From the NCBI RefSeq assembly GCF_044324785.1, contig NZ_CP172129.1: DNA of 64,000 nt; one strand, written 5' to 3'. Under the pieces are notes generated by a model. That model was not told the origin of the DNA and ran no database searches. It saw nothing but the letters and a program-made list of their open reading frames with translations. Origin of the DNA: Escherichia coli. Lineage in GTDB: Bacteria > Pseudomonadota > Gammaproteobacteria > Enterobacterales > Enterobacteriaceae. A program made the translations under genes and the position numbers. The first letter of the stretch is position 1. Every line of letters starts with the position of its first letter. Shown one piece after another: positions 8,981-53,190 of the stretch.

Positions 8981-9117
8981 GTTCACAGATAAAACACTCT
9001 CCAGGAAACCCGGGGCGGTTCACCTACAGAGTACCGCTACCACTTGTGAAGCTGGCAGATTCAGATTGTTTTCAATCGACAACGCCTCATAGTTAAAGTC
9101 ATCAACGACATTGAACG

Positions 9118-9835
<718 letters not shown>

Positions 9836-10412
9836 TTGATGGAGATATAAATGGCTCACTTTTTATCGGTTGTTGACGATACGTTTATCAAGTATACATG
9901 AAAATTTCTTCATACCAGCTATATGAGACGTTAAGACTAATAATCTTACTCCCAAAATGACTATGTTGTTGCAGTTTGGTTTATTGACTCTTGTCTATAG
10001 TTCACCGAATGCCAAGATGAGGGAGCGAGGAACTTTACTGTCTACGCCTCTCTTCCTGGTTACAAAGACAAGCGTAAAACTCACCATCCATTAGAACTAA
10101 AGGCACTTTCCTGAGCAGAGTTTTCATCTGCAAGATAAAAGCTATTTTACAGCCGTAAAGTCCAGTGAAACGAAAGAGAGGTTAGTGAATTAATTACTTG
10201 ATGTATTAAAGTATAATGGGCGTAGATAACACCTTAATACGAAATCTTGTCAGGCTTTCCCGGTAATTAGTAATACTGTTGAAACAAAGCGAGAGGGGGT
10301 TAGCCCAATTTACGCAAATAAATAATAATCTTGATTATGATTAATTCCAAATAAGTATATTTTTCCAGTAGATGCTGGGCATTAACTAAGAAAACCCAGA
10401 ATACCACTTTCA

Positions 10413-13558: not shown

Positions 13559-13561
13559 TAT

Positions 13562-14932: not shown

Positions 14933-15254
14933 GTCTAATTGGGGACAACCAGGAGCAATAAGGAGTGAAAAATAGCCACAGCTGAAAACACCATAGCCAT
15001 TGACATTTGAGCTTTACCTGCTCTTGAAAACAAAAAATCACTGTTAAGCGCAATGCTATTCACTTCAGCAGAGCAGTATTGCGTGTCACGAGCATGTTTA
15101 CCATTCTGTGTAAATATCTTTTCTTAAAAGTGATCATCAAAGCAGTCATCAAACTCGATAAATATCCACCGGCATAGCGTAATGCCGAGCAATTAAGGAT
15201 CAATTGACCGCTCCTTAAACTGCGGCACTATAACGGCTTCTACAACAGGGAGCC

Positions 15255-15633
15255 GTTTTCTTGTGCATAGAAAACCCCCAGCTAGGCTGGGGGTTCCGGA
15301 AAGCTTTCAGCTTTGAGCCAGTTATTAAAACCCCTTTTGATTTGTTAAAACACCTTGCGGTCTGGCAACTGCAAGTGTCAAACAAGAAATCAAAAGGGGG
15401 TCCCAATGGGGAACGAAAAGAGCTTAGCGCACACCCGATGGAACTGTAAATATCACATAGTATTTGCGCCAAAATACCGAAGACAGGTGTTCTACAGAGA
15501 GAAGCGTAGAGCAATAGGCTGTATTTTGAGAAAGCTGTGTGAGTGGAAAAGTGTACGGATTCTGGAAGCTGAATGCTGTGCAGATCATATCCATATGCTA
15601 CAATGTTTGTCAAAGCTCAGTGAAAATGTCTAA
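15255..15633 (+). mobile_element. IS200 remnant: left-end hairpin plus the first ~75 codons of tnpA (15406-15633), 3' truncated
   Basis: Hairpin CCCCCAGCTAGGCTGGGGG followed by an ORF MGNEKSLAHTRWNCKYHIVFAPKYRR… matching IS200 TnpA, which diverges after …ADHIHML. Confidence 0.75.
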
Positions 15634-15728
15634 TCACTGGCTCATTATAAATGTCCATATATTGAAAAGGCCGCTGCGAAAATCCCTCCCGCAGCGGCCT
15701 CTTTAGCATAACGTCATTATGCGAACCA

Positions 15729-16670
15729 TCACTTAATGTTCTTCTCGCATTTTAAGAGAAATAGTAAATTTGTAGCAGTAAGATGAAGCATATAGCTTAC
15801 CAATTCTTCCGGAACCTCTTTAATATCAGCTCCTTGCCCATGACCTGCATTTTTGTTTCTGATGGTTGGAATTCCTGTTTCCAGCATTGTTTTCAGACTT
15901 GTGAACTGGCTTTGTAAATATGCCGGAATTAAATTTTGACTTAAACAGCTATTTATTAGTTTTGATGCTGTATCATTAGGACTATATTTCCAGTTATTCT
16001 TATCATGTATTGCTTTCATTATACTTTCAAATGATTTCAGACAATCATTTAGACATTCTTTATAACGCTTATGCCTGTAATGCTCATGCGCAGCAAGGAA
16101 TTCATCATTGGCGCCTTCAAACAAGGGTTCTCCACTTAAAAGAATCAGGGTTGGCTTTACGACATCAGCATGAATCAATTGAGAGTCTATCCTTATTATC
16201 TCTTCAGATTCAAACTGATAACCAACCCCATGTTCTCTAAACCTTTCATTTAGTTCAATAACTGCATCTCCAGGACTTTGACTTGTTATGTCTTTGAATT
16301 CATAATGGTTTTTCGCAACGTGGCTCACTAGTATCTGGAAGCATATTTCTATGAAATCTAGGCATTTCTCTGTATTTCTCTCTTTAAGGAAAAAGTCGAC
16401 AAGAGCGTCAAAGTCATTCTTTGCAAATTCCTTCAAAGAAAAAACACCATATTCCTTAGAAAGTATCTCATGGATATATGCATATACTTTGTCAGCTTCA
16501 TTTCTATACGATGTGTAGCGTTCATTAGAAGAGGGGAAGCCGATAGAATCAGTTATTATTTTAATTATTTGCACCCTGAGTGCATGTGGAATATTGTTAT
16601 ATTGATATACGTCATTTACTTCGCCACGAATTTTTCTTTGTCTCTTAGAATAAATATTAATAATTGCCAT
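15729..16670 (-). CDS. AbiJ-like protein with a C-terminal HEPN-type motif; candidate abortive-infection/defence gene
   Basis: 313-aa AT-rich ORF; C-terminal R-x5-H motif (IRNKNAGHG) typical of HEPN RNase domains; sits between IS remnants. Confidence 0.5.
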   Translation of the reverse strand: MAIINIYSKRQRKIRGEVNDVYQYNNIPHALRVQIIKIITDSIGFPSSNERYTSYRNEADKVYAYIHEILSKEYGVFSLKEFAKNDFDALVDFFLKERNTEKCLDFIEICFQILVSHVAKNHYEFKDITSQSPGDAVIELNERFREHGVGYQFESEEIIRIDSQLIHADVVKPTLILLSGEPLFEGANDEFLAAHEHYRHKRYKECLNDCLKSFESIMKAIHDKNNWKYSPNDTASKLINSCLSQNLIPAYLQSQFTSLKTMLETGIPTIRNKNAGHGQGADIKEVPEELVSYMLHLTATNLLFLLKCEKNIK

Positions 16671-16904
16671 GAAATAGCCTCAAGATTTTTTTACATGCTG
16701 TTCTGTGATACTTGCTGTTTGGCTCTTTGCACCGCGAAGCGGTTCGGGGTTCTGTGACACCCGAATTTTACCTCGGTTTCCTTTGTATATAATATCATTG
16801 AAGTTATTTGCATTTCTCAGAAATCTTCTCTGGCTTTGATTGCAATAGCCGAAAGATAGCGCACACATCGCCGTTGGTCAGTTAGTACGAGGTTTCCGCC
16901 AAGT

Positions 16905-18294
16905 TCACCTTTTACCAAAGATGGCCTCAGAGCTTCCCTGAAGCTTTATCATGGCTTCAAGTAGGTCATCTTCGTTCAGTGAGCGCTGAGATTTGTTGAT
17001 GCTAGGGGCGTGCCGTCTGCGGGAAGGCTCATCACCAGAACAAGGTAACGATTGTGAGCGATTATTGTCCCGTTTTCTCTGGACCTGACGGGCAACATCC
17101 AACACATGGCCAAGTCTCTTGTTATCTACAATGGCGACGGGATCAACCTCAGAAAGCCGGTCATAGGTGGAGTAGGGCAGCAGCACGCCATTTAGTCGCA
17201 GCTCCTTATGTCCGTCAGGATAATGCCAGACATCAATATACTTGCCGATGGCTCTTCGACTGTACTCGTTGTCCTCAATCAGATAGAGCATTTTATCGTA
17301 TTGTACAGTCAGATTTTTTGATACCCGGCGAGGCTCTCGCTAGGTAAATTCTGCATCAAGGTCATCGTCTAATGCCTGCGGCCGGTGCGCGTTAAAATCA
17401 TGCAAGGGTTCTTTGGCAAAGCGCCGGTTATAATCCTTCTGCAAATGCATTGGCCGCTTCTATTGTACAGATCCCCTTAAGCCTGAGCTCCTTAACGAGT
17501 CGGTCCTGAAGTGTCAAATGAGCACGTTCAACGCGGCCTTTTGCCTGGCTGGTTTCAGCACACAAAGGAGTAATATTAAGGCAGCGCATGGCCCTGGCAA
17601 ACTGGGTTTCGCCGGGGCCGGTGGTGGCGTGCTTATTATTGACTCTGAATACGCTGGCTTTATCGCTGTAGAGGATCATCGGTTTACCGTATTTCTCGAT
17701 ATAGCCACGTGTAGCTTCAAAATAGGTAAATGTGGACTCAGATTTCACAAACAGCAGGTGCATCAGGCGACTGGTGGCATCGTCAACATAGACCAGGGCA
17801 GAACAGGGTCGACCCCGGTTTTCAAACCAGTGGTGGTCGCAGCCATCAATTTGTATCAGCTCGCCAGTACAAGGACGCCGGTAACGAGGCTGATGAATTT
17901 TCGGTGCGCGTTGTCTGCGGGGAATCCAGAGTCCGGCCTTTATCATGAGACGTCGGATGGTTTCCTTTCCAAGGACCAGACCGTGAACTTCCTCCAGCTT
18001 TTCCCGCGCTAGCGTGGGGCCAAAATCACGGTAGTGCTCCCGGATTATACTGAGTGCCTGATCTGTCAGTGACGCTGGCAACAGACGGTTACCAGTGCGG
18101 CCACGACTCTGGTTGTTCATGCCAAGCGGCCCATACTGGCGATAACGTTTGAGCAGACGGCTGCAATGACGTGGCGTGATGCCCAGCATTTCGGCAGCCT
18201 GTCCAGGACGGATATTGCGATCGATGACATCCTGAAGGATTTTGAGGCGATTGATTTCTTTCACGGTGAACATTCCGGCGTCATTTATAGCCAT
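16905..18294 (-). pseudogene. DDE transposase (HTH plus integrase-core rve domain, IS481/ISNCY-like), split into two ORFs
   Basis: ORF 17428-18294 carries the HTH and DDE core (…LIQIDGCDHHWF…YSDKASVF…); ORF 16905-17291 is the C-terminal continuation in another frame. Confidence 0.55.
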
Positions 18295-18589
18295 AGAAAA
18301 CTCCTCATCAGGAAAAAGTGAGTCGTTGTCTAGACATAGGGATCTGAGAAACTATAGCCTGGACATTCCTAATGAGCCACAAATAGACATTAGCATTGAG
18401 CCTCTACAATGTTTGTGCGCACAATCTATCTTATGTTAAATAACATTGAATATTAACTTACTTCATGAAGCTTACTGCTTCTATTTCCACTTCTTTTTCT
18501 TATTAATCGCTCCCCTAATCCACGCATTCATCTGCTCTACAGGCTCTAAAATATTTTTTCTGAGTACTGAGCACAAACTGCTCCATAAA

Positions 18590-18800
18590 AAACAGACCAC
18601 AAGTTTGGGCATGATACTGATGTAGTCACGTTTTATTGTTTTCATGAAGCTCTCTGCTATTCCATTACTCACCGGACTCCGCACCGCCGTGTTCTTCGAT
18701 TTAAGTCCCAACATCCGAGCGAACTGGCGTGTTTCATTAACCCGGTAGTCAGAGTCAGCGGTCGAAAGACCTCCCAGGTAGCTACTCTGCATACCCACTA
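18590..18800 (-). mobile_element. IS2 fragment (3' part of insD)
   Basis: Minus-strand translation …[45 protein letters not shown]… matches IS2 InsD; DNA near-identical to 21510-21700. Confidence 0.7.
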
Positions 18801-18930
18801 TAATGCAACTATTCTCGTGACGTGTGTTTCAGCTCTCCCCCGGCTATGATACGAGATGGTATGGAGAGCCCTTCTGGGGCCACTGCCTGCACCAGATGCA
18901 ACAGGAAGCCTGATATGAATGCAATTTCTG

Positions 18931-20124
18931 TCAGGACAGGCGGGTAACTTTCTGTGGCCATGGATCAGGGAATACTCCACCCGACATCCACCACTGAATT
19001 TCTTCTTCAGTCAACAAGCAAAGGGATAAGGCATGTGTAAAATCATTAACTTCAGTGGCATTGCCAATGATAGTCAACTGACAGCAGCGATCGCCAAATC
19101 GCCCAGAGGCTGTGTCGATGTGTCGCTGTAGCGCTGAACGTTCTTCACGAGTTAAATTATTGTCAGTATGTTCCAGTACTCCAGCTTTCCAGTAGCCAAT
19201 GAGCGCCAGACTGATGCTTCCTGCTGACTGATTCCAGAGCAGGGCAAGATCATCTCTCCCGGGGAGCCAAAAAAAACCTTTACTGCGATAAACGCCCATG
19301 CCCATAAAGCGGTGACAGGTATCCCATAATCTTTGCGGATGGAATGGCCTGTCGTCCCTGATGACGCGCCATATAAGTTCCTCATTGTTGCACGGAGTAT
19401 CCATGTTTCCTACAAGTGCTTCCAGTTCACTGATGAGTAACTCAACACGGTCAAAATTGTAGTCCGGGATCGCCAGTAATGTGCTCAGTTCAATATTTCC
19501 CCATGATACCGCGAGCACATCCACGGAGGGGTTAAGTGGGTGTATGGCTTTTGCCACAGCGGAGATAATGTCAAAGGGCAGGCGGTCATTTCTGGTCAGC
19601 AGCAGCCTGTTGCAGAACATGATTTGCTCGGCCAGCAAATTCTCCAGGCCGCGTTTGTTATGCCGGAGATTTTCCTGAAGAGTGGGGATCAGTTTTTTCC
19701 CATCATTGTAATCTTCATGGAGCATGACAGTATCAACGAGTGTTAAAAACGCCTTCAGGCGTACACGTGAATGGCGACGCAGGTATTTGACCAGAGGAAG
19801 CGGATGACTGCTTCCGGAGGTTTCAATCAGCATCACATCCGGCTTGTTGTGATCAAGCAGGTGGTTAATTGCGAGATCCATCTTTTTGAGGCCTGCGGGG
19901 CTGCTGATGCTGTCTGCGGTGATACTTACGAAATTATTGTCTTTTGCATCTACAATATCTGTGTTGGCGATCAGCACGCCGTCCACATCCAGTTCGCTCA
20001 TGTCATTGACTATGACAGAGACTGAAAGCTGTTTTTCGTGTGCCTGTATGAGCAGGTTTTTCAGCAGAGTGGTTTTCCCTGCGCCGAGGAAGCCATTGAG
20101 AATGATGACAGATGTTGTTTCCAT
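18931..20124 (-). CDS. CobW/COG0523-family G3E GTPase (putative metallochaperone)
   Basis: P-loop GFLGAGKTT near the N-terminus (start taken at METTSVIILNG…) plus a CobW-like C-terminal domain; the 435-aa ORF in the track has an N-terminal extension unlikely to be translated. Confidence 0.65.
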   Translation of the reverse strand: METTSVIILNGFLGAGKTTLLKNLLIQAHEKQLSVSVIVNDMSELDVDGVLIANTDIVDAKDNNFVSITADSISSPAGLKKMDLAINHLLDHNKPDVMLIETSGSSHPLPLVKYLRRHSRVRLKAFLTLVDTVMLHEDYNDGKKLIPTLQENLRHNKRGLENLLAEQIMFCNRLLLTRNDRLPFDIISAVAKAIHPLNPSVDVLAVSWGNIELSTLLAIPDYNFDRVELLISELEALVGNMDTPCNNEELIWRVIRDDRPFHPQRLWDTCHRFMGMGVYRSKGFFWLPGRDDLALLWNQSAGSISLALIGYWKAGVLEHTDNNLTREERSALQRHIDTASGRFGDRCCQLTIIGNATEVNDFTHALSLCLLTEEEIQWWMSGGVFPDPWPQKVTRLS

Positions 20125-20869
20125 ATCAGCAGTACACCAGTTAGTTAGCGAGGAAGGCGCTTGGTGGTACAAAGAGCATCCGGATTGAATCGCATAACGT
20201 CGACGGGAGTTGTTGTCGTTTTTCCTGTGAGGTCTCAACCTGCCACAGAACGCACCGGACTTATTGGTATTTAGTCTCCATCAGCATAATTATCACCATT
20301 TTTATCTCCGGGGGAAGATTTGTTCTGAACAGGAGTGGGAGGTGTGACCTCCTGAAAGTAATTACAGATTGCTAGTTGTTGTATTTTTATTCGAATATGT
20401 CTCTTCGTATCAGTGATAGCACCTAGATAAAGTATATTCCGGGAGCGTTATCTGTTCTAGATATCAGAGAGTCAGTCATTTGTAAAAAAGAGAGCTGCAT
20501 CATTCTATTTTTCCTGTCTATTCACCCTGTTGTCGTATCTAAAAGACATCCGTTCCGAGGATGTCGGGCACCCGTTCTGTACTAAGATACATAGCTTTTG
20601 GGTCTGCACTATTTGGAACCGACAGAAGTCTGTCTGTGATATCCGCATTTTTCTGTGTGCGATATATTCCGAAAAACTTCAAACCACTTAAAAGAGGTGT
20701 TTCCGGAGGATAAGTTCGACCAGGGAATAGTGTTTCCTGGTAAGTGTGGCGGAGCCAGTTCACCAGGAGTATCTTTCTTATCCAGTTATACTGGATTTTA
20801 TTAGATGATCACCCTACCCTGCAGCAGTACGCTGACGGTGTTTTTTTGGGAGAACCATTATGAATAACG

Positions 20870-21336
20870 TCATCTTTGATTGGTATTTATCTAGGCAAAA
20901 ATTCATTCAACGTCCACTGCCAAGATGCAACAGGCAGAGTCCTTAACTGTCAGAATCCAAGTGCTCGAAATTATTCGAATTCCTTACTAATTCCTCCTAC
21001 ACAACTATTGTTATGGAAGCTTGCGAAGATGCTCACTATATGGCACGGAAATTTTCGGAAATGCGTCATAAAACAAAGCTAATACCTCCTCATTTTGTCC
21101 AACCCTTCGTTAAAATTAATAAAAATGATTTCTTTGAGGCTGAAACCATATGTGAAGTTACATCAAGCCATCAATGAGATTTGTAGCATTAGGAGCTGAA
21201 TCCCAGCAGAGGATTCCACTTTTCATCCGTCGTTGACAATGGCCTTGAAAAACGCCGTTACTCACCGTTCTCCTTCACGGTAATACGCAGTTATAGTTGC
21301 AGAGCAATGTAATGGATCTTTTATATTAAGAAATTG
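20870..21336 (+). pseudogene. IS110-family transposase N-terminal fragment, frameshifted and cut by IS2
   Basis: Frames give MNNVIFDWYLSR…/…GIYLGKNSFNVHCQDATGRVL…/…KLIPPHFVQPFVKINKNDFFEAE… resembling the N-terminal domain of IS110-family transposases; ends at the IS2 terminus. Confidence 0.4.
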
Positions 21337-26171: not shown

Positions 26172-26200
26172 AAATGATATTGGTAATTATTATCATTAGC
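26172..26200. promoter_or_regulatory. Possible Fur box upstream of iroB
   Basis: AAATGATATTGGTAATTATTATCATTAGC resembles the Fur consensus GATAATGATAATCATTATC; about 440 bp from the iroB start, so weak. Confidence 0.3.
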
Positions 26201-33974: not shown

Positions 33975-36152
33975 TCAGAATGATGCGGTAACTCCGGCAT
34001 AGTAAGCCCGGCCTGGCTCGTTATAGGTATTCGCCCCTTCAGAAGATCGGAAGATCTGTTTATTGAGGATATTACTGACGCCGACATTAAGACGCAGATT
34101 TTTATTAATATCGTAATTGAAGTTCGTCCCCACCAGTGAATAAGCGCCCAGCTCTTTACCTGACAGACCGCCAGTATCTTCACTGCGGGTTTCCGCATGA
34201 GTACGCGGTTTTTGTCTGCCATATAACGTCCAGTTGACGCTGGCAGAAAACGCCTGGGTGATGGTCCAGTTAAGCGAGTTATTGATAGTATATTTCGGGA
34301 TGACCGACAGAGGATTACCGGTGTCTTTTTGCTCCGAAGTGATCATCCATGTGGCATTGGTATTCCAGTTCAGACGATCTTTCACCAGTGGGAAAGACAT
34401 ACTGGCTTCGATACCGTCCACCAGAGCTTTCCCGCCATTCTGCCACTTGAGGATATATGCGCCTGAAGCGGTTTGCCCGATAACGTTATCCCCGGCCACG
34501 ATCTTATTCTGGTAATCATTGCGGAAGTAGGTCACACTTGCGTGGTAATCTTCCCAGGTGAACTCCAGCCCAATTTCTTTATTGACGCTGATTTCCGGAT
34601 CGAGATCTTTATTACCGATCAGGTAGCACCCGCCTGATGTAATATCTTTTGGACAGCCATTGCCTTTCGAGTAGAGCAGATAGCCTTCACTGGATTGATA
34701 CAGGTTTGGGGCTTTAAAGGTTCGGGCAACCCCTGCTTTGACTTTGAAATAATCGCCCAATTCCTGCGAAAGATTCAGACTGGGGCTGAAGTTCCCGCCG
34801 GAGTCGCTGAGATAATCAAAGCGCAGGCCGGGAATGATATTCGTGCCAGGAACCGGCTCAATGTTATCTTCAATATACAGCGCACTGATTTGAGAATGAT
34901 TTTTACTGCTGCGATCCGCAGCAGAGCCAGAAATACCGCTGATATCACTGTCATTCACCGTCAGGCTGGTAGAGGAAGGATCATCGAGCTTATCGCGGTT
35001 CCACTCTGCACCAACGGTCAGCGTTTGATCAACCATCACATTCAAAGGAATATTAAGCTCGCCGCTGGTTCGCCAGGAACTCAGGCGATTGGTCGTAAAC
35101 TTTTCACCCGCTAAAATACGCCCTTCACCACCGCCGGATAATCCTTCATTCATGCGGGTATTATTGGTTTTCTCGTAATAAACACCAAAGCGACTTTGTC
35201 CCCAGTCCCAGATACCATTATGCGTAATGCCATAATTCTGTCGGTACAGGCGGTTCGTCTCTTTGCCGGATTTTGCCAGGCTTTCGGTAACTGCACTGGA
35301 AGAACTGTTTTGCGTATCGCCCGCATAGATATTCCCCTGGCGGCTATATCCGGCTTCGAAATCGAGAATCTGCTGCGGATTTAATTTCCACGAGACAACG
35401 CCGTTAATATCTTTGTTACGTACCCCTTCATGCCCGGCTGCGTTTTTCGTACCGACCGGAGAATTAATATCCCAACTGTCAGCATCCGTTTTATTCAGGT
35501 TACCATACAAACGCGTGGTAAGAGCATTACCAGCCAGAGGCCCACTAAGGCTGAAATTGGCGCGACGCGTAGCGCCCTCATCGCTACTTTCCGGCTGATT
35601 GGTGTATAACGACAGCGAACCGTGCCAGTCGTTGGTGGGACGTTTGGTAATGATGTTCACCACCCCCCCGGCTGCCCCCGAACCGTAGCGCGCCGCCGCA
35701 GGGCCGCGGATCACTTCAATACGCTCAACCTGTTCCGGTGGCACCCAGTTGGTGTCACCGCGGGTATCACGCTCTCCACGCCAGCTATAACGCACGGAGT
35801 TACGTGACGTCACCGGTACACCATCAATTAAAATTAAGGTGTTTTCCGGCCCCATACCACGAATATCGATCTGGCGGTTGTTACCGCGTGTGCCCGAGGC
35901 GCTATTGCCGGTAAGATTGACGCCAGGCATTTTACGAATAATATCTGAAAGGTCGTTTACCGGAGGGGTCTTTTTAATATCCTCGCTGGTAATAACCGAC
36001 ACGCCCGGCTGCTGTTTTAATACCTGCTCAGCGGTGGCTTCCACCACCAGAGTCTCGTCATTATCATCGTCGGAGGATTTGGCTACTGATACCTGGCTAT
36101 TCAACCCAACCAGGAGCACAGTTAGCGACCAGAGGATTTTGTTAATTCTCAT
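33975..36152 (-). CDS. iroN: IroN, TonB-dependent outer-membrane receptor for salmochelin/catecholate siderophores
   Basis: 725-aa ORF with signal peptide, TonB box (…DETLVVEA…), plug and barrel, ending in the terminal aromatic motif …GVTASF. Confidence 0.9.
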   Translation of the reverse strand: MRINKILWSLTVLLVGLNSQVSVAKSSDDDNDETLVVEATAEQVLKQQPGVSVITSEDIKKTPPVNDLSDIIRKMPGVNLTGNSASGTRGNNRQIDIRGMGPENTLILIDGVPVTSRNSVRYSWRGERDTRGDTNWVPPEQVERIEVIRGPAAARYGSGAAGGVVNIITKRPTNDWHGSLSLYTNQPESSDEGATRRANFSLSGPLAGNALTTRLYGNLNKTDADSWDINSPVGTKNAAGHEGVRNKDINGVVSWKLNPQQILDFEAGYSRQGNIYAGDTQNSSSSAVTESLAKSGKETNRLYRQNYGITHNGIWDWGQSRFGVYYEKTNNTRMNEGLSGGGEGRILAGEKFTTNRLSSWRTSGELNIPLNVMVDQTLTVGAEWNRDKLDDPSSTSLTVNDSDISGISGSAADRSSKNHSQISALYIEDNIEPVPGTNIIPGLRFDYLSDSGGNFSPSLNLSQELGDYFKVKAGVARTFKAPNLYQSSEGYLLYSKGNGCPKDITSGGCYLIGNKDLDPEISVNKEIGLEFTWEDYHASVTYFRNDYQNKIVAGDNVIGQTASGAYILKWQNGGKALVDGIEASMSFPLVKDRLNWNTNATWMITSEQKDTGNPLSVIPKYTINNSLNWTITQAFSASVNWTLYGRQKPRTHAETRSEDTGGLSGKELGAYSLVGTNFNYDINKNLRLNVGVSNILNKQIFRSSEGANTYNEPGRAYYAGVTASF

Positions 36153-36247
36153 ACCTATTCCCTAATAAATGCCTAACTTAAAATGTTTGATCGTTAAGCT
36201 CACATCCTTGCCAGATATTTTTTACTGCCATTATTGTTTTTATATAA

Positions 36248-36267
36248 GAATGATAATTAATATCATT
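36248..36267. promoter_or_regulatory. Fur box in the iroN promoter
   Basis: GAATGATAATTAATATCATT, about 100 bp upstream of the iroN start, close match to the Fur consensus. Confidence 0.6.
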
Positions 36268-37006
36268 TAGCAAAAAAAAAAGCAATCCCTCACAAGATAA
36301 ATATATCGATTTTTCATAAATATCAAATTGATATATAACATATGTTTTTTATTTCATTGCACTTGTCGATCATCGGGAATTTTGTCACAATTTCTCACGG
36401 ATAGTGTTCACATTGTTTCTGACCTGCATTTCAGGCGCGGGCGCTGCTTATGTATATAAGGGCCTGTGGTCGACGAATCAGCATAATCAGATCTTCCTGC
36501 GAGCAATTTCTTTCAGCGTATCAGGCAGCACTATCGGATTATCTACGTGCGTTTTTGATTCACATTGTGTGTGAAACTTCATACATCATGATTCGCTTTC
36601 CCTACTCAGTTCTGATGATTGTTTTTTATTCTATTAACACGGAGTTAAGATTCTACCCTCGGTGTCCTCATTATTAATGAGGAATGCTACCTATCTAAAA
36701 ACTGACCGAAACTTTGGGGCATCCCTGGAGGTTTCCAAGGAGAAAAAGGTGACAGTGATAGTGCCACATTGTGAGGAAATTCCTGAGAAACTCCTGGTTC
36801 ACACACATAATTCAGGAGTTTGCCATAGATAGTAACCAATTGTTTTATATTTTAAGACCATTAAATACGCGGCTACGATAGCGCTTTATATAATCATAAA
36901 CTGTAGAGATAAAATATCTGCTTCTCTGATAACACTAATTGAGTGTCTTAAACTAAGTAATTTCATTTTTCCCCCTTTAAAAGCAATATATGTGCAATAG
37001 TTGAAG

Positions 37007-38041
37007 TTAAAGCTGTGCTGCCAGAGTTGATAATAATTGTTCTGTCTGTTGCCATGATATGCATTCATCAGTAACAGACTGACCATACTCTAGCGGAAAA
37101 CTATCGGATTGTTTTCCATCTTGTAAAAAGCTTTCCACCATAATGCCAGCTACATATCCTGGTATTTTTTTCCGATTATCTATAACTTGACGTGCAACGG
37201 AAATTTGCCGTTTAGCCACTTTACCGCTATTACCATGGCTACAATCAATTATCAGACGATGGTTAATACCCTCATCATGCATTAATTTCACTGCCTTAGT
37301 TATATCAGACAAACCATAGTTAGGTTCTCTACCTCCACGTAATATTAGATGTCCATGTGGATTGCCATCGGTTAATAGTGTAGATATACTATTTGTTAAA
37401 GATGTCATATATACAATATGTTGTTCACGGGCTGCAATAATAGCGTCAATAGCTAAGTTAATATTTCCATCAGTACTGTTTTTAAATCCAACTGGACAAT
37501 GTAAACCAGACGCAAGTTGACGATGCGTTTGTGATTCAGTGGTTCTGGCACCAATAGCACCCCAACATATTAAATCAGCAATATAGGGAGTAAGAAAAGG
37601 ATCGAGGAATTCTGTAGCGGTTGCGACACGCATCGTTGTGATTGAAGACAAACACTGGCGAGCATATCGTATCCCTTTCTCAACATCATAACTTCCATTT
37701 AGATCAGGATCGTGCATTATTCCCTTCCAGCCTTTACGGGTTCGAGGTTTCTCAAAATAAGTGCGCATTACAATGTACATTTTCGATAAGTACTTATTCT
37801 GTAATACGAACAATCGCTTCGCATAATCAACTGCGGCCTGAACGTCATGGATTGAGCATGGACCAACAATCACAAGTAAGCGAGGATCTTTTCCCAGCAA
37901 AATATTCGCTATAATATCTCGTTGCAGAGAGATCCATGTTACGGTTTCTTCCGATACTGCGATTTCTTTATGAATCTCGCCCACAGTGGGTAAACTGCCA
38001 AGCAACTTCCCGCGGTAGATTAATTTACTAGCTGACTGCAT
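37007..38041 (-). CDS. Class I 3-deoxy-7-phosphoheptulonate (DAHP) synthase, AroG/AroF/AroH-like
   Basis: 344-aa ORF with DAHP synthase I features (…LLVIVGPCSIHD…IDCSHGNS…). Confidence 0.8.
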   Translation of the reverse strand: MQSASKLIYRGKLLGSLPTVGEIHKEIAVSEETVTWISLQRDIIANILLGKDPRLLVIVGPCSIHDVQAAVDYAKRLFVLQNKYLSKMYIVMRTYFEKPRTRKGWKGIMHDPDLNGSYDVEKGIRYARQCLSSITTMRVATATEFLDPFLTPYIADLICWGAIGARTTESQTHRQLASGLHCPVGFKNSTDGNINLAIDAIIAAREQHIVYMTSLTNSISTLLTDGNPHGHLILRGGREPNYGLSDITKAVKLMHDEGINHRLIIDCSHGNSGKVAKRQISVARQVIDNRKKIPGYVAGIMVESFLQDGKQSDSFPLEYGQSVTDECISWQQTEQLLSTLAAQL

Positions 38042-38244
38042 CTTGTCTCCTAAAAGCGCTATTTCAGACCATCAGTTGCACACAGTAGATGATAATGATA
38101 ATCATTTACTGTATAATTGGCAATATATGGGGATTCATAGTCATTTCTGAGATAATATACGTTAGGCCTTCTCTCCCGTACGGAAATCACTTGTTTTCCG
38201 TAAATTACCTGAATCTTAATCCCTGAGCTGCGGCTAGCTGTGGA

Positions 38245-38582
38245 ACTCACAAAAGCTGACCGGGCCGTGGCACAGCCTCTCTGCTGGCAGAACAGCGTAC
38301 TGCAGAAGTCGTCGTACTGCCGCTGGTCCCGGCATCAGGTCTGCCCGCAGATGGCACTTCTGCCACTGATCTGCCGGTGGAGCTGAACGGCATGACATAT
38401 CAGGCCTGCCGTGGGGATTTTGTGGTGCGCCTCGACGGCAGCACCTGTCTGCAGTTATAGAATAAAGAAGGCGGGGAGGTACGCAGGGAGGGCGATCCGC
38501 TGGAAGTGGCGTAGTGGCTGTAGGCCTGTAATGATGCAGGAATAGAAGTTCGTGTACAGGTTAATGAAAGCATCACCCCGTA
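38245..38582 (+). pseudogene. Decayed copy of the 3' half of the gene at 47720-48310, with in-frame stops
   Basis: DNA aligns with 47955-48310 at high identity but carries stop codons (…CAGTTATAGAATAAA…, …GTGGCGTAGTGGCTGTAGGCC…). Confidence 0.6.
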
Positions 38583-38600
38583 AAAACATGCCGGCACGGT

Positions 38601-38909
38601 TTACACATCATTCCATGGTGGCAGCCGGTTAACTTTCCTGCGCCACCAGTGGAAAGAGGCCATGAGCAGTCCGAACAAAAAACCACTCGTGATACTTATA
38701 ATAATGGCCTCACCTGCTACCATTCCTGACGGCCCCCAGTACATAAACCACATTGCACATCCCCAGGAAATACCCCATAAGCCCCCCATCAGCAGCGTAA
38801 CCTGCCAGAACGGCATAAAGGGCAATGGCGGAAGCCGGATACCCAGCCGCCAGAGAATACGCAGCAGAGGAGGAGCATAATTACTCCGCCACATCTTTTT
38901 GCTGTCCAT
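38601..38909 (-). CDS. Small membrane protein, paralog of 48330-48587
   Basis: 102-aa ORF with hydrophobic segments; 28 aa longer than the paralog at 48330-48587. Confidence 0.45.
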   Translation of the reverse strand: MDSKKMWRSNYAPPLLRILWRLGIRLPPLPFMPFWQVTLLMGGLWGISWGCAMWFMYWGPSGMVAGEAIIISITSGFLFGLLMASFHWWRRKVNRLPPWNDV

Positions 38910-39076
38910 CAGGGCAATTGCCCGGGCTTTTTTTGCTCAAAAGTCACAGGAGCACCTCCGTTCCATGATGTAAACGTGACACAACTTATTGTTATTGATT
39001 ATTATTATCATACCGTGATTATGTTGTCATGCACCTGTACACTGATAAAAGAAAGGGAGAACAGGAGGCTGGCTGA

Positions 39077-39384
39077 ACAACCAATCCGTTCGTCCAGTTC
39101 AATGGCGGCTATCAGGTTCTGCTCCGCAATGTACTCACGAATGCGCTTCCTGTCCTGGCTGGTCAGCATGGTCCAGAATATCTCCATCATTTACCGGCGA
39201 CTTTCCTGCTCATTTCATCCCGCCATGCAGCAGCGGAAGATTCGACCATGTCATGGGGAAGCACATCGCCGCGCTCGAGTTGCTGACGTCCTGCCTCAAC
39301 CTGGTCACGGAACCAGGTATTATGCTGCCGTTCCACGGTCTGGCGCATAAAATCCCGGATTAACTGAGAGCCATTACGGTCCAT
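39077..39384 (-). pseudogene. Remnant of the ParE/RelE-type toxin and RHH antitoxin pair (toxin truncated after ~40 codons; antitoxin frameshifted at its 5' end)
   Basis: DNA aligns with 52190-52580; the toxin ORF runs into unrelated sequence; a 1-bp difference (GCAGGGCCAT versus GCAGCGGCCAT) removes the antitoxin start. Confidence 0.65.
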
Positions 39385-39742
39385 GCTTTTTGCAGGGCCA
39401 TAAAAGCATCCTTCAGTTCAGCGTCAATTCTTAAACTCATATTAACCTGTGCCATTTATCACCCCGTCATTACCACGTATATACACAGTATATAACGATT
39501 CAGATATCGTCACTAGGATATGCCGCGCCAGCGGCATGGAAGGCGGCACTCCGCTGTTTCATATGATACCGCCGAAGCCCGATGTAAGCCGCTACAGTCG
39601 TCCGAAAGTCACCAGCCTCCTCCCCCCTGCCGTCATCCGTGCATCAGCTATGCACTGAGTATGCCTGCCCTTCCCTAGAGAATCCTGCTAGGCTTGCCAC
39701 ACTGATATATCTTGACTTTATGTAAACGATATGACACTTTAA

Positions 39743-39761
39743 CATGATAATGATTACCATT
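39743..39761. promoter_or_regulatory. Fur box upstream of cvaA
   Basis: CATGATAATGATTACCATT in the cvaA promoter region. Confidence 0.5.
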
Positions 39762-40065
39762 CTCTTTTAATATACAGAGAAACTAGGAAATAGATGAATG
39801 AGTTATGTTACTTTAATATTCTCTGACAATAACCTAAATCAGTTAGATTATTGTCATTTAATAAATAATGACATTCTTTCATCATAAATAAAAAGACTAT
39901 TGTTTATAATATTGTTCTCAGCATTATATGATTATTTATCCTGATAACTCTCCTATGCTGTATGTTTATATGATTTTCCTTGAAACATATAATGCAAATT
40001 TTCGATTTATTTTCCATCATTAATCCAGATAAACAACAAACTAATAGTATGCAAGGAGACATTAT

Positions 40066-41340: not shown

Positions 41341-42109
41341 CAGGAATTTCAGACAAATTATAAATCTGCTTGATTTGCGCTGGCAACGTCGTGTTCCGGT
41401 TATTCATCAGACGGAGACCGCTGAATGTGGACTGGCCTGCCTAGCAATGATATGCGGTCATTTTGGTAAGAATATTGACCTGATATATCTTCGCCGGAAG
41501 TTTAATCTCTCTGCCCGTGGAGCAACCCTTGCAGGAATCAATGGAATAGCGGAGCAACTGGGGATGGCCACCCGGGCTCTTTCACTGGAGTTGGATGAAC
41601 TTCGAGTCCTCAAAACGCCGTGTATTCTCCACTGGGATTTCAGTCACTTCGTCGTTCTGGTCAGCGTAAAGCGTAACCGTTATGTACTGCATGATCCGGC
41701 CAGGGGCATAAGATATATCAGCCGGGAGGAAATGAGCCGATATTTTACAGGCGTTGCACTTGAGGTCTGGCCCGGAAGTGAATTCCAGTCGGAAACCCTG
41801 CAGACCCGCATAAGTCTTCGTTCACTGATTAACAGTATTTACGGTATTAAAAGAACGCTGGCGAAAATTTTCTGTCTGTCAGTTGTAATTGAAGCAATCA
41901 ATCTGCTAATGCCGGTGGGGACACAGCTGGTTATGGATCATGCTATTCCTGCGGGGGACAGAGGGCTACTGACGCTAATTTCTGCTGCTCTTATGTTTTT
42001 TATATTACTCAAAGCTGCAACGAGTACGCTGCGCGCATGGTCTTCACTGGTTATGAGCACGCTCATCAATGTACAGTGGCAGTCGGGGCTGTTCGATCAT
42101 CTTCTCAGA
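41333..42109 (+). pseudogene. cvaB: cvaB 5' portion (C39 peptidase domain and first TM segments), interrupted by IS903
   Basis: [20 protein letters not shown]…ETAECGLACLAMI… reading frame ends at the IS903 left end after …LFDHLL. Confidence 0.85.
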
Positions 42110-43166
42110 GGCTTTGTTGAATAAATCGAACTTTTGCTGAGTTGAAGGATCAGATCACGTATCTTCCCGACAACGCAGACCGTTCCGTGGCAAAGCAAAA
42201 GTTCAAAATCACCAACTGGCCCACCTACAATAAAGCCCTCATCAACCGTGGCTCCATAACTTTCTGGCTGGATGATGAAGCTATTCAGGCCTGGTATGAG
42301 TCAGCAACACCTTCTTCACGAGGCAGACCTCAGCGCTATTCTGACCTTGCCATCACTACTGTGCTGGTCATTAAACGCGTATTCAGGCTGACCCTGCGGG
42401 CTGCGCAGGGCTTTATTGATTCCATTTTTTCTCTGATGAACGTTCCGCTACGCTGCCCGGATTACAGCTGTGTCAGCAGGCGGGCAAAGTCGGTTAATGT
42501 CAGTTTCAAAACGCCCACCCGGGGTGAAATCGCACACCTGGTAATTGATTCCACCGGGCTGAAGGTCTTCGGTGAAGGCGAGTGGAAAGTCAAAAAGCAT
42601 GGCCAGGAACGCCGCCGTATCTGGCGTAAGCTGCATCTCGCCGTTGACAGTAAAACACATGAAATCATCTGCGCTGACCTGTCGCTGAACAACGTTACGG
42701 ACTCAGAGGCCTTCCCCGGGTTAATCCGGCAAACCCACCGGAAAATCAGGTCAGCCGCCGCCGATGGCGCTTACGATACCCGGCTATGTCACGATGAACT
42801 GCGGCGTAAGAAAATCAGCGCGCTTATCCCTCCCCGAAAAGGTGCGGGTTACTGGCCCGGTGAATATGCAGACCGTAACCGTGCAGTGGCTAATCAGCGA
42901 ATGACCGGGAGTAATGCGCGGTGGAAATGGACAACAGATTACAACCGTCGCTCGATAGCGGAAACGGCGATGTACCGGGTAAAACAGCTGTTCGGGGGTT
43001 CACTGACGCTGCGTGACTACGATGGTCAGGTTGCGGAGGCTATGGCCCTGGTACGAGCGCTGAACAAAATGACGAAAGCAGGTATGCCTGAAAGCGTGCG
43101 TATTGCCTGAAAACACAACCCGCTACGGGGGAGACTTACCCGAAATCTGATTTATTCAACAAAGCC
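42110..43166 (+). mobile_element. IS903 (IS5 family), 1057 bp, flanked by 9-bp target-site duplication CTTCTCAGA
   Basis: Terminal inverted repeats GGCTTTGTTGAATAAATCG… at 42110 and …TTTATTCAACAAAGCC ending at 43166; direct repeats CTTCTCAGA at 42101-42109 and 43167-43175. Confidence 0.85.
42142..43110 (+). CDS. IS903 transposase
   Basis: 322-aa ORF filling the element; DDE-type transposase. Confidence 0.8.
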   Translation: MKDQITYLPDNADRSVAKQKFKITNWPTYNKALINRGSITFWLDDEAIQAWYESATPSSRGRPQRYSDLAITTVLVIKRVFRLTLRAAQGFIDSIFSLMNVPLRCPDYSCVSRRAKSVNVSFKTPTRGEIAHLVIDSTGLKVFGEGEWKVKKHGQERRRIWRKLHLAVDSKTHEIICADLSLNNVTDSEAFPGLIRQTHRKIRSAAADGAYDTRLCHDELRRKKISALIPPRKGAGYWPGEYADRNRAVANQRMTGSNARWKWTTDYNRRSIAETAMYRVKQLFGGSLTLRDYDGQVAEAMALVRALNKMTKAGMPESVRIA

Positions 43167-44495
43167 CTTCTCAGACTACCGCTGGCGTTTTTTGAACGCC
43201 GAAAATTAGGTGATATCCAGTCACGTTTTGACTCCCTTGACACATTGAGGGCCACATTTACCACCAGTGTGATCGGGTTCATAATGGACAGCATTATGGT
43301 TGTCGGTGTTTGTGTGATGATGCTGTTATACGGAGGATATCTCACCTGGATAGTTCTCTGCTTTACCACAATTTACATTTTTATTCGTCTGGTGACATAC
43401 GGCAATTACCGACAGATATCAGAAGAATGTCTTGTCAGGGAGGCCCGTGCCGCCTCCTATTTTATGGAAACATTATATGGTATTGCCACGGTAAAAATCC
43501 AGGGGATGGTCGGAATTCGGGGGGCACACTGGCTTAATATGAAAATAGATGCGATAAATTCGGGTATTAAGCTAACCAGGATGGATTTGCTCTTCGGAGG
43601 AATAAATACCTTTGTTACCGCCTGTGATCAGATTGTAATTTTATGGCTGGGAGCAGGCCTTGTGATCGATAATCAGATGACAATAGGAATGTTTGTAGCG
43701 TTTAGTTCTTTTCGTGGGCAGTTTTCGGAAAGAGTTGCCTCTCTGACCAGTTTTCTTCTTCAGCTAAGAATAATGAGTCTGCACAATGAGCGCATTGCAG
43801 ATATTGCATTACATGAAAAGGAGGAAAAGAAACCTGAAATTGAAATCGTTGCTGATATGGGGCCAATATCCCTGGAAACCAATGGTTTAAGCTATCGTTA
43901 TGACAGTCAGTCAGCACCGATATTCAGTGCTCTGAGTTTATCTGTAGCTCCGGGGGAAAGTGTGGCTATAACTGGTGCTTCCGGTGCGGGAAAAACCACA
44001 TTAATGAAAGTACTATGTGGACTATTTGAACCTGATAGCGGGAGGGTACTGATAAATGGTATAGATATACGCCAAATTGGAATAAATAATTATCACCGGA
44101 TGATAGCCTGTGTTATGCAGGATGACCGGCTATTTTCAGGCTCAATTCGTGAAAATATCTGTGGTTTTGCAGAGGAAATGGATGAAGAGTGGATGGTAGA
44201 ATGTGCCAGAGCAAGTCATATTCATGATGTTATAATGAATATGCCAATGGGATATGAAACATTAATAGGTGAACTTGGGGAAGGTCTTTCTGGCGGTCAA
44301 AAACAGCGTATATTTATTGCACGAGCCTTATACCGGAAACCAGGAATATTATTTATGGATGAGGCAACCAGTGCTCTTGATTCAGAGAGTGAACATTTCG
44401 TGAATGTTGCCATAAAAAACATGAATATCACCAGGGTAATTATTGCACACAGAGAAACAACGTTGAGAACTGTTGATAGAGTTATTTCTATTTAA
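43167..44495 (+). pseudogene. cvaB: cvaB 3' portion (remaining TM domain and ABC ATPase)
   Basis: Frame resumes …RLPLAFFERRKLGDIQSRF… after the IS903 duplication; Walker A GASGAGKTT, signature LSGGQKQR. Confidence 0.85.
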
Positions 44496-45237: not shown

Positions 45238-45256
45238 CGATAATGATTATCGTTAA
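45238..45256. promoter_or_regulatory. Fur box in the cvi-cvaC promoter
   Basis: CGATAATGATTATCGTTAA about 50 bp upstream of the cvi start. Confidence 0.6.
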
Positions 45257-45308
45257 CATAGTCAAGAGTGAAGGGTAGGAGGCCCTCAACCCCCTATAAG
45301 GGGTCCGC

Positions 45309-47723: not shown

Positions 47724-48310
47724 CTCAGAGCCGCCGACCGTCGCCACTGCAGCGAAGAATGCTGATTGTGCTGGCTGCCCTTGATGAAAAACGGCCAGGA
47801 CCCGTGCTGACGCGGGACATAGAACGGGTGCTGGAGCGAAGCGGGGAAGCCCCAGTCTACGGGCCAAACCTGCGCGCCTCCTGCCGTCGTCTGGAGGATG
47901 CCGGCTGGCTGCGTACCCTGCGCGCTCCGAACCTGCAGCTGGCAGTGGAGCTGACGGACGTCGGCCGGGCCGTGGCACAGCCTCTGCTGCTGGCAGAACA
48001 GGACCGCCTCCGGGCAGAACAGCGTGCGGCAGAAGTCGTCGTACTGCCGCTGGTCCCGGCAGCAGGTCTGCCCGCAGATGGCACTTCTGCCACTGATCTG
48101 GCGGTGCAGCTGAACGGCATAACGTATCAGGCCTGCCGTGGGGATTTTGTGGTGCATCTCGACGGCAGCACCTGTCTGCAGTTATGGAATAAAGAAGGCA
48201 GGGTGGTACGCCGGGAGGGCGATCCGCTGGAAGTGGCGCAGTGGCTGCAGGCCTGTCACGATGCAGGAATGGAGGTTCGCGTACAGATAAATGAAAGTGC
48301 CGCTCCGTAA
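47720..48310 (+). CDS. Hypothetical protein (196 aa), GC-rich
   Basis: Coupled to the upstream ORF; a decayed second copy exists at 38245-38582. Confidence 0.45.
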   Translation: MTQSRRPSPLQRRMLIVLAALDEKRPGPVLTRDIERVLERSGEAPVYGPNLRASCRRLEDAGWLRTLRAPNLQLAVELTDVGRAVAQPLLLAEQDRLRAEQRAAEVVVLPLVPAAGLPADGTSATDLAVQLNGITYQACRGDFVVHLDGSTCLQLWNKEGRVVRREGDPLEVAQWLQACHDAGMEVRVQINESAAP

Positions 48311-48329
48311 GAACACGCCTGTGCACGGT

Positions 48330-48587
48330 TTACACATCATCCCATGGTGGCAGCCGGTTAACTTTCCTGCGCCCCCAGTAGATAAACCACATTGCACATC
48401 CCCAGGAAATGCCCCATAAGCCCCCCGTCAGCACCGTGACCTGCCAGAACGGCATAAAGGGTAATGGCGGAAGCCGGATACCCAGCCGCCAGAGAATACA
48501 CAGAAGAGGAGGGGCATAATTGCTCCGCCACATCTTTTTGCTGTCCATCAGGGCAATGGCCCGGGCTTTTTTCTGCTCAAAGGTCAC
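48330..48587 (-). CDS. Small membrane protein (85 aa), paralog of 38601-38909 with a 28-aa in-frame deletion
   Basis: Hydrophobic ORF; aligns with 38601-38909. Confidence 0.4.
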   Translation of the reverse strand: MTFEQKKARAIALMDSKKMWRSNYAPPLLCILWRLGIRLPPLPFMPFWQVTVLTGGLWGISWGCAMWFIYWGRRKVNRLPPWDDV

Positions 48588-48715
48588 AGGAGCACCTCCG
48601 TTCCATGATGTAAACGTGACACAGCTTATTGTTATTGATTATTATTATCATGCTGTGGTTATGTTGTCATGCATCAGTACACTGACAAAAGTGCAAAAGA
48701 AAGGAAAACAGGCAG

Positions 48716-51024: not shown

Positions 51025-51138
51025 TTAATTTATTAAGGAGAAAATGGCATGTCAAGATTTAATGATAGTGATTATCATTAACATGAAGTGATTTTACGTC
51101 TGGATAACGTAAATGATTGCGGTATACAGGCCAGGCGG

Positions 51139-52032: not shown

Positions 52033-52314
52033 CTATGGCCACTTCTGTGCAGTATGCAATACACGCAGGATATACACTTTTCCCCACTGGCTGTCGACCT
52101 CATAAACCAGAACAAAATGCGGGTGAATAACCAGTTCCCGGGTACCTTCCACACGACCGTTGCGGCCTTTATACGGCTGCCCGGCCAGGCTGCTGGCTGA
52201 ATAACCAATCCGTTCGTCCAGTTCAATGGCGGCCATCAGGTTCTGCTCCGCAATGTACTCACGAATGCGCTTCCTGTCCTGGCTGGCCAGCATGGTCCAG
52301 AATATCTCCATCAT
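52033..52314 (-). CDS. RelE/ParE-superfamily type II toxin
   Basis: 93-aa ORF overlapping the upstream antitoxin by 4 bp; ParE/RelE-like C-terminus (…HPHFVLVYEVDSQWGKVYILRVLH…). Confidence 0.65.
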   Translation of the reverse strand: MMEIFWTMLASQDRKRIREYIAEQNLMAAIELDERIGYSASSLAGQPYKGRNGRVEGTRELVIHPHFVLVYEVDSQWGKVYILRVLHTAQKWP

Positions 52315-52580
52315 TTACCGGCGACTTTCCTGCTCATTTCATCCCGCCATGCAGCAGCGGAAGATTCGACCATGTCATGGGGAAGCACATCGCCGCGCTC
52401 GAGTTGCTGACGTCCTGCCTCAACCTGGTCACGGAACCAGGTATTATGCTGCCGTTCCACGGTCTGGCGCATAAAATCCCGGATTAACTGAGAGCCATTA
52501 CGGTCCATGCTTTTTGCAGCGGCCATAAAAGCATCCTTCAGTTCAGCGTCAATTCTTAAACTCATATTAACCTGTGCCAT
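52311..52580 (-). CDS. Ribbon-helix-helix type II antitoxin
   Basis: 89-aa ORF MAQVNMSLRIDAELKDAF… upstream of the toxin. Confidence 0.6.
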   Translation of the reverse strand: MAQVNMSLRIDAELKDAFMAAAKSMDRNGSQLIRDFMRQTVERQHNTWFRDQVEAGRQQLERGDVLPHDMVESSAAAWRDEMSRKVAGK

Positions 52581-53190
52581 TTATCACCTCGTCATTACTA
52601 CGTATATACACAGTATATAACGATTCAGATATCGTCACCAGAATATGCCGCGTCAGCGGCATGGAAGGCGGCACTCTGTTGTTGCATATGACACAGGAGT
52701 AAAACCGCCGAAGCCCGGCGTAAGCCGGTACGGACTGATAGATTTCACCTTACCCATCCCCAGCCCTGCTAGGCCATATCCGCTTTCAGCCATGATAAAG
52801 CTTCTGTGCGCGGTCGGAGTGGTCCCGACGAGGGTTTACCCGAAGTCGGGGCGTATCTCCGCGTTAGCGGGCCGTCAGGGCCGCTTACGAGCGTGTACTC
52901 AATACTTTCAGCGAGAAGACTGACAGCCATGATGGAGTATAGTTACAACATTCATAATTAAAAGCGACTCTGTTCCGGCCCGAAGGGCCGGGGCGGGGCC
53001 GCTTTTCAGTTATGAGGGAGGGGCTTTGTGGTTTCAGTTCTGCGCTGGTTCGGGGTTTTTCTGGAGGTTGGTTTTGTGTGTTGTAACTAAAGTGGCTCCG
53101 GTTGGGGCCCGCCGTTTACGGTGGGAGGTGCATATCTGTCTGTCCACAGGACAGGCAGTGAATAGGTTTTCTTTTTAAATGAATGTAATT

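Follow-up and report, generated by a model that had tools for sequence, protein, structure and literature searches.

ssbL, a gene for a fourth DAHP synthase isozyme on a ColV-type virulence plasmid: a Fur box over its promoter, replaced inhibitor-contact residues in its product, and a proposed role in siderophore precursor supply

The 64,000-nt stretch of Escherichia coli DNA analyzed here (contig NZ_CP172129.1 of assembly GCF_044324785.1; hereafter, the window) contains a local gene set consisting of iroBCDE, iroN, ssbL, a DUF6404 gene, yacAB remnants, cvaA, cvaB, cvaC, and cvi. A first-pass annotation of the window had placed a class I DAHP synthase at positions 37007-38041; the open reading frame was confirmed, although no strand had been given and the gene lies on the minus strand. 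The gene is ssbL, which encodes a fourth DAHP synthase isozyme and is carried on ColV-type virulence plasmids. The gene and the elements around it are as follows.

33975..36152, minus strand: iroN, salmochelin receptor gene (from the annotation of the 100% identical plasmid NZ_CP151051.1)
36153..36895, unstranded: AT-rich spacer between ssbL and iroN, about 35% GC, comprising the iroN promoter region and a plasmid-specific stretch (from GC content)
36896..37006, minus strand: 3' flank of the ssbL cassette (nucleotides 747-2054 of the query 36150-38300 match chromosomes at about 90% identity)
37007..38041, minus strand: ssbL (open reading frame and translation), ATG at 38041, 344 codons plus stop
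38042..38203, minus strand: ssbL 5' leader and promoter region, including AGGAG (from homology to c1220-type loci)
38091..38109, unstranded: Fur box GATAATGATAATCATTTAC, 17 of 19 consensus matches (2 mismatches), 50-68 nt upstream of the ssbL ATG
38095..38123, minus strand: sigma-70-like promoter TTGCCA-17 nt-TATCAT reading into ssbL, 10 of 12 consensus matches, joint top score in the region
42142-43110: transposase open reading frame of an insertion sequence (Pfam DDE_Tnp_1_5 / DDE_Tnp_1)

The segment from 36150 to 38300 occurred with 100% identity in many ColV/ColIa-type plasmids from E. coli and Salmonella Kentucky, in several of them at the same coordinates as in the window; by this identity the gene is plasmid-borne, as had been stated. 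The ssbL stop codon is 854 bp from the iroN start codon (36152), in agreement with the earlier estimate of about 900 bp, and the two genes lie on the same strand with ssbL upstream of iroN. The iroN promoter region is common to chromosomal iro loci up to about position 36460, and UTI89-type chromosomes match only nucleotides 1-311 of the same query. Relevant to any co-transcription of ssbL and iroN, the latter has its own promoter region, which is shared with chromosomal loci that lack ssbL; no convincing terminator was found in the spacer between the two genes, where only one weak terminator-like hairpin was detected (36767-36749).

An AGGAG ribosome-binding site is located 6 nt before the ssbL start codon, and the product is an intact class I-alpha (AroF/G/H-type) DAHP synthase (3-deoxy-7-phosphoheptulonate synthase) of 344 amino acids. 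SsbL matched the full-length Pfam profile DAHP_synth_1 (PF00793) with an E value of 7.6e-76 and a score of 255 bits (cut-off, 25.5), and it scored 420 bits against NCBIfam TIGR00034 (aroFGH; cut-off, 173) and 437 bits against PRK12755 (cut-off, 343). The curated profile cut-offs for class I-alpha DAHP synthases were thus exceeded over the full length, and on this sequence evidence membership of the fold is certain; the nearest solved structures were those of the Neisseria meningitidis enzyme, followed by E. coli AroF and AroG. In an alignment with AroG, the metal ligands (C62, H269, E303, and D325) and the substrate residues (R93, K98, R100, T101, A165, R166, K187, and R235) were kept in SsbL. 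We take the active site of AroG to comprise the metal ligands Cys61, His268, Glu302, and Asp326 and the substrate-binding residues Arg92, Lys97, Arg99, Thr100, Arg165, Lys186, and Arg234; these four metal ligands and seven substrate-binding residues are conserved in SsbL and in all of the aligned relatives. The assignment to class I was therefore confirmed by PF00793, TIGR00034, and the intact active site, and the inactive catalytic residues that the first-pass annotation had named as an argument against its reading were not found. From these residues we infer that SsbL would condense phosphoenolpyruvate and erythrose-4-phosphate to DAHP, the first step towards chorismate.

The protein was 100% identical to SsbL/ORF 123 (pS88123; WP_001190234.1; L014:7965-8999) of pS88, a ColV-Ia plasmid of E. 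coli S88, which was described as ORF 123 by Lemaître et al. (2012, BMC Microbiol; PMC3438092) and later named ssbL. As in the window, the pS88 gene is flanked by iroN on one side and by the DUF6404 gene, yacA, and cvaA on the other and has the same Fur box; the nucleotide changes are synonymous or intergenic only. The cvaB genes differ, however, in that no IS903-like insertion is apparent in the annotation of pS88, whereas cvaB in the window carries one. The pS88 study also pointed out that the gene has a Fur box, is linked to iroN, and has chromosomal homologues in c1220 (strain CFT073) and ECP_0281 (strain 536) (PMC3438092). ssbL belongs to the virulence region conserved on ColV plasmids and is listed within the core genome of virulence plasmids from neonatal-meningitis E. 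coli (PMC4723317).

Inspection of the promoter for a Fur box, which the first-pass annotation had recommended, revealed the site at 38091-38109. By consensus match, it covers the spacer and the -10 element of the predicted promoter, and an overlap of this kind is classic for repressors that occlude a promoter. The chromosomal copy has a box equally far from its ATG. The window holds 13 sites with three or fewer mismatches, where chance would give 0.03; further 19-mers of this kind were located at 23970, 26176-26200, 39746-39764, 45239-45257, and 51064-51082, one of them on the iroB promoter side and another upstream of cvaA. Transcription of ORF 123 was reported to be induced more than 100-fold in serum, urine, and iron-depleted medium, the strongest response in serum and urine of any pS88 ORF assayed (PMC3438092), and Fur acts directly on c1220 of CFT073 (PMC7157518).

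The enzyme had also been suggested to be differently feedback-regulated, and an alignment with AroG, AroF, and AroH had been proposed for predicting the type. SsbL was nearest to AroH (49% identity, compared with 44% for both AroG and AroF), and its pocket matched none of the three. Its best score among the isozyme models was on that of AroH (NCBIfam NF009396), at 442 bits, below the cut-off of 463; it falls outside the AroH clade and lacks the ppsA-ppsR-aroH synteny, so it does not qualify as an AroH equivalog, and it was also below the cut-off of the NCBIfam AroG family. SsbL shares its length, the class I-alpha family, and the metal and substrate residues with AroH (Trp-sensitive), AroG (Phe-sensitive), and AroF (Tyr-sensitive); however, the inhibitor-contact residues are replaced, and Fur control is found on the SsbL side. 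The housekeeping enzymes AroG, AroF, and AroH are under TyrR/TrpR control. For the Phe-contact residues of AroG other than Gln151, Lys214, Pro150, and Ser180, we assumed those of the 1KFL structure work. The aligned pocket positions are as follows.

AroG Gln151: Pro152 in SsbL
AroG Lys214: Leu215 in SsbL
AroG Ser180: His181 in SsbL
AroG Pro150: Thr151 in SsbL
AroG Phe209: Val210 in SsbL
AroG Ser211: Met212 in SsbL
AroG Asp6/Asp7: Leu7/Ile8 in SsbL

Asp146 of AroG is retained, but the residue pattern of the feedback-inhibited isozymes (the AroG/AroF/Aro3/Aro4-type site, with Gln151, Lys214, Pro150, Ser180, and a polar or acidic pair near the N terminus) was not found in SsbL. In yeast Aro3, two residues are key to the hydrogen bonding of Phe, namely the counterparts of Gln151 and Lys214, and K229L of Aro4 is the classical feedback-resistant allele (PMC10349828); feedback-resistant mutants also include P150L and S180F of AroG and P148L and Q152I of AroF (PMC11843938). 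Because the inhibitor-contact residues of AroG and Aro3 are replaced, SsbL is predicted to lack canonical binding of Phe, Tyr, or Trp and to escape the corresponding feedback, which at the sequence level supports the suggestion of a different regulation. No gaps were found between SsbL and AroG/F/H in the N-terminal region or at residues 209-222, and invariant residues flank the pocket segments. Since the pocket scaffold appears to be retained, a different effector, instead of none, could bind there. Classification of SsbL by similarity as a Phe-, Tyr-, or Trp-sensitive type was rejected, as it is below the AroH cut-off and lacks the inhibitor contacts of all three. The literature searched yielded no enzymological work on SsbL or on other members of the subfamily.

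The nearest proteins outside E. coli were those of Citrobacter amalonaticus and Morganellaceae (70% identity), followed by an unassigned sequence (59%), by proteins of Vibrio, Veronia, Psychromonas, and Shimwellia (51-55%), and then by ordinary AroH orthologues (about 50%). In a neighbour-joining tree, SsbL and 19 relatives formed a 20-sequence clade with 100% bootstrap support that was sister to AroH (93%). All members of the clade have Pro at the position of Gln151, a residue other than Ser at that of Ser180, and Arg after the KPRT motif; among the best 120 database matches, 37 carried this Pro/non-Ser/KPRTR signature and 82 had the canonical Gln/Ser. Replacement of the inhibitor contacts Gln151, Lys214, Ser180, Pro150, and the Asp6/Asp7 pair extends through the subfamily. 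Where genomic context was checked, a catechol-siderophore cluster contained or adjoined the gene in every case (six of six subfamily members). These clusters hold genes for NRPS condensation and adenylation domains, an EntA-like dehydrogenase, isochorismate synthase, and EntE-/EntB-like proteins, together with TonB-dependent receptors and FecCD/periplasmic binding proteins; as a control, the AroH-type gene of Providencia was found at the housekeeping ppsA-ppsR locus. Fur boxes were present upstream of the SsbL-type genes of Veronia, V. vulnificus, V. splendidus, and Shimwellia. For the C. amalonaticus and Morganellaceae relatives, no Fur box with four or fewer mismatches was found in the 400 bp upstream; both have a degenerate Fur-like site with five mismatches at -58, a comparable position (L006 9943-9961 and L007 9943-9961). 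The same two proteins have a 7-residue N-terminal extension, and in the Morganellaceae relative about 3 kb without called genes lies between the gene and the NRPS/receptor genes.

The DAHP synthases of Vibrio catechol clusters belong to the SsbL subfamily (51-53% identity) and share its allosteric signature and upstream Fur boxes. However, the Vibrio gene lies inside the biosynthetic cluster beside entA/entC-like genes, whereas ssbL of E. coli is a stand-alone 1.3-kb cassette that, unlike its Vibrio counterparts, adjoins a receptor gene or a microcin cluster. The DAHP synthase gene of the vab cluster of V. anguillarum is presumably vabG, which is reportedly dispensable. The published vanchrobactin (vab) map of this species includes a DAHP synthase (PMC12421891). 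In the Vibrio clusters with an SsbL-type enzyme there is also a gene for a small chorismate mutase-type protein of the stand-alone kind (Pfam CM_2, 109-113 aa; L010 17242-17571 and L012 16968-17309), which is unexpected where chorismate goes via isochorismate. The logic of a dedicated enzyme encoded with a chorismate-derived secondary-metabolite cluster is shared by PhzC. PhzC is a class II enzyme, so it would not be homologous to SsbL at the subfamily level, and we know of no iron regulation of PhzC through a Fur box. One study describes PhzC of Pseudomonas phenazine operons as distinct from aroF/G/H and as a pathway-dedicated DAHP synthase that raises the supply of chorismate-derived precursors (PMC8772962).

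Neither this subfamily, sister to AroH, nor its replaced pocket residues were found described in the literature searched. We put at about even the chances that SsbL represents a distinct, undelineated class I-alpha subfamily (KPRT-R, Pro151, non-Ser180, and non-Lys214) dedicated to catechol siderophores across Enterobacterales and Vibrionaceae, with a pocket that is blind to Phe, Tyr, and Trp or tuned to another ligand (a catechol or a chorismate-derived intermediate), and with entry into the pathway governed by Fur and iron rather than by aromatic amino acids. The remaining interest of ssbL is biochemical and lies in the predicted insensitivity of this siderophore-linked subfamily to aromatic amino acids. 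Natural feedback insensitivity, if true, would explain how pathogens sustain catechol siderophore output amid plentiful aromatic amino acids and would make SsbL-type enzymes ready-made feedback-resistant DAHP synthases for metabolic engineering; similarly, control of shikimate entry by iron and Fur would explain the need for such an enzyme in amino-acid-rich host fluids.

We propose, with a probability of roughly 0.9, that SsbL is a Fur-repressed extra DAHP synthase that feeds siderophore precursors in iron scarcity, to which the allosteric escape may be added. Fur-Fe2+ would repress the ssbL promoter, so that production of the enzyme, along with that of iroBCDEN, would be restricted to iron scarcity. 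The added chorismate flux would pass to 2,3-dihydroxybenzoate and salicylate and thereby raise the output of enterobactin/salmochelin and yersiniabactin. In amino-acid-rich host fluids, AroG, AroF, and AroH would be inhibited, and SsbL, whose pocket appears to lack the residues that hold Phe, Tyr, and Trp in the housekeeping isozymes, may keep the pathway open under the control of iron alone. In our analysis, the basis for this proposal is the enzyme family, the active site, the overlap of Fur box and promoter, selection, and the subfamily with its genomic association; in the literature, in part as summarized by later papers, it is the induction of ssbL, its effect on siderophores, and its role in virulence.

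The first-pass annotation had likewise held that the gene could boost precursor supply under iron limitation, and the literature bears this out. The pS88 group proposed the same for ORF 123 in 2012 and reported the induction described above (PMC3438092), and a positive effect of ssbL on siderophore yield is attributed to Lemaître (2014, J Bacteriol 196:1343) in PMC6918656 and PMC4723317; the siderophore and shikimate-pathway phenotype summarized in PMC6918656 lends indirect support to the predicted DAHP synthase activity. Expression under iron limitation and an effect on siderophore production, the absence of either of which had been named as an objection, are thus both published. The feature and the precursor-boost reading are already known under the names ssbL, ORF 123, and c1220, and as stated that finding adds nothing to the literature. 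ssbL matters for the virulence of extra-intestinal E. coli through siderophore output and systemic fitness.

The segment common to the plasmid and chromosomal copies is confined to 36896-38203 and consists of the gene plus flanks of 111 bp downstream and 162 bp upstream. The c1220-type copies of CFT073, 536 (ECP_0281), Nissle 1917, and ABU 83972 are located on the chromosomal serX pathogenicity island. At the nucleotide level, the CFT073-type copy was about 92% and the Rb-3-type locus about 90% identical to the plasmid sequence, and the Rb-3 protein was about 94% identical to SsbL. Like plasmid ssbL, c1220 has the conserved Fur box and promoter and is a fitness factor induced in infection; in a transposon screen of systemic infection, it was the highest fitness factor in Table 1, and a defined mutant was outcompeted in the spleen and liver (PMC3855560). 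The two differ in position: c1220 lies beside the microcin H47/M cluster and, as in strain 536, 20-30 kb from iro (PMC3438092), whereas plasmid ssbL is 0.85 kb from iroN. UTI89 is iro-positive without ssbL (PMC3438092); the gene is therefore not universal among iro-positive strains and is an accessory, not a requirement.

In CFT073 and Rb-3, roughly 3 kb separates the chromosomal copy from mchI-mchB and mchF-mcmA (microcins H47 and M), and this interval holds nothing more than an IS3 remnant. The regions are as follows.

L015 (CFT073), 10166-21035: chromosomal ssbL-microcin region
L001 (Rb-3), 8324-13139: chromosomal ssbL-microcin region

On the plasmid, the related genes for colicin V export, cvaA-cvaB, are about 2 kb from ssbL, and the HlyD-family proteins of the plasmid cvaA-cvaB and chromosomal MchE-type loci have near-consecutive accessions (WP_000489608 and WP_000489610). 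Since microcin export genes are next to ssbL in both contexts, this arrangement suggests an older module in which microcin export, ssbL, and iro were combined. Fur targets also include MchBCDEF (PMC7157518). Along with the chromosomal distance from iro, these observations raise the idea that SsbL mainly supplies the catechol of glucosylated enterobactin for siderophore-microcins, or is left over from a microcin island of this kind, and does not serve salmochelin as such. Colicin V, however, carries no siderophore modification, ssbL is intact in the window despite the disruption of cvaB, and the more distant relatives of SsbL are found in siderophore clusters, not microcin clusters. The published ssbL phenotype, as summarized in PMC6918656, also concerns siderophores, and we consider a mainly microcin-directed role unlikely. 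The siderophore and microcin roles are not exclusive, because the same precursor pool serves both.

Iron-independent paralogues that are induced under iron limitation exist in other systems, and SsbL might by analogy be an iron-sparing isozyme: the housekeeping metalloenzymes would lose activity when Fe2+ is scarce or oxidized, and a Fur-derepressed paralogue that is sturdier or prefers another metal would keep the whole shikimate pathway going. Fur control of ssbL/c1220 and the subfamily's own substitutions beside the substrate motif (KPRT-R and ITDEC) are consistent with this idea, as is the general fitness defect of the c1220 mutant in the spleen and liver (PMC3855560). However, the four metal ligands are identical to those of AroG and thus point to no change of metal, and the catechol-siderophore linkage throughout the subfamily members checked argues for a pathway-specific role. 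The tight linkage to siderophore clusters therefore favors precursor supply over iron-sparing replacement, to which we give only a slim chance.

The plasmid and Rb-3 chromosomal copies differ at 69 of 1035 nucleotides (dS 0.23, dN 0.028, and dN/dS 0.12), and ssbL is under purifying selection. Of 5426 complete E. coli genomes, 621 carried the gene plus its promoter (598 at a query coverage of at least 80%), with 448 plasmid and 188 chromosomal locations; the carriers include CFT073, Nissle 1917, and ABU 83972. A functionless hitchhiker, linked to iroN and the colicin V operon by mosaic plasmid assembly, could have the AT-rich foreign composition seen here (35-40% GC, with about 40% for the cassette, vs 56% for iroBCDE), the pseudogenes and IS remnants on its other side, and a cassette that moves independently of iro, but this is scarcely credible against such prevalence and the published induction, and a pseudogene or hitchhiker reading was ruled out by the dN/dS ratio, the conserved active site with all catalytic residues intact, and the published phenotypes.

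Directly upstream of the AT-rich ssbL promoter, a GC-rich segment (about 55%; 38222-38523) marks the edge of the cassette; in the identical plasmid, it is annotated as a frameshifted, N-terminally truncated hypothetical gene. The DUF6404 gene (38601-38894) and its flanks, just upstream of ssbL (38286-39051), are a diverged duplicate (91-93%) of 48013-48691, a copy that adjoins the colicin Ia immunity and colicin Ia genes, and a site resembling a Fur box is present in either copy (38991 and 48631). The interval from the DUF6404 gene to cvaA holds what is left of the yacA/yacB type II toxin-antitoxin pair (39062-39455), with a frameshifted antitoxin and a truncated toxin; a diverged copy of the segment 39062-39566 (97% identity) is located at 52186-52691. 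Further along, an IS903/IS102-like element of 1057 bp (42110-43166; region, 42101-43175) disrupts cvaB, the gene for the ABC transporter that exports colicin V; its terminal inverted repeats are 18 bp long (GGCTTTGTTGAATAAATC), and the target duplication measures 9 bp (CTTCTCAGA). Since NZ_CP151051.1, an otherwise identical plasmid, has an intact cvaB, colicin V export has probably been lost in the plasmid of the window.
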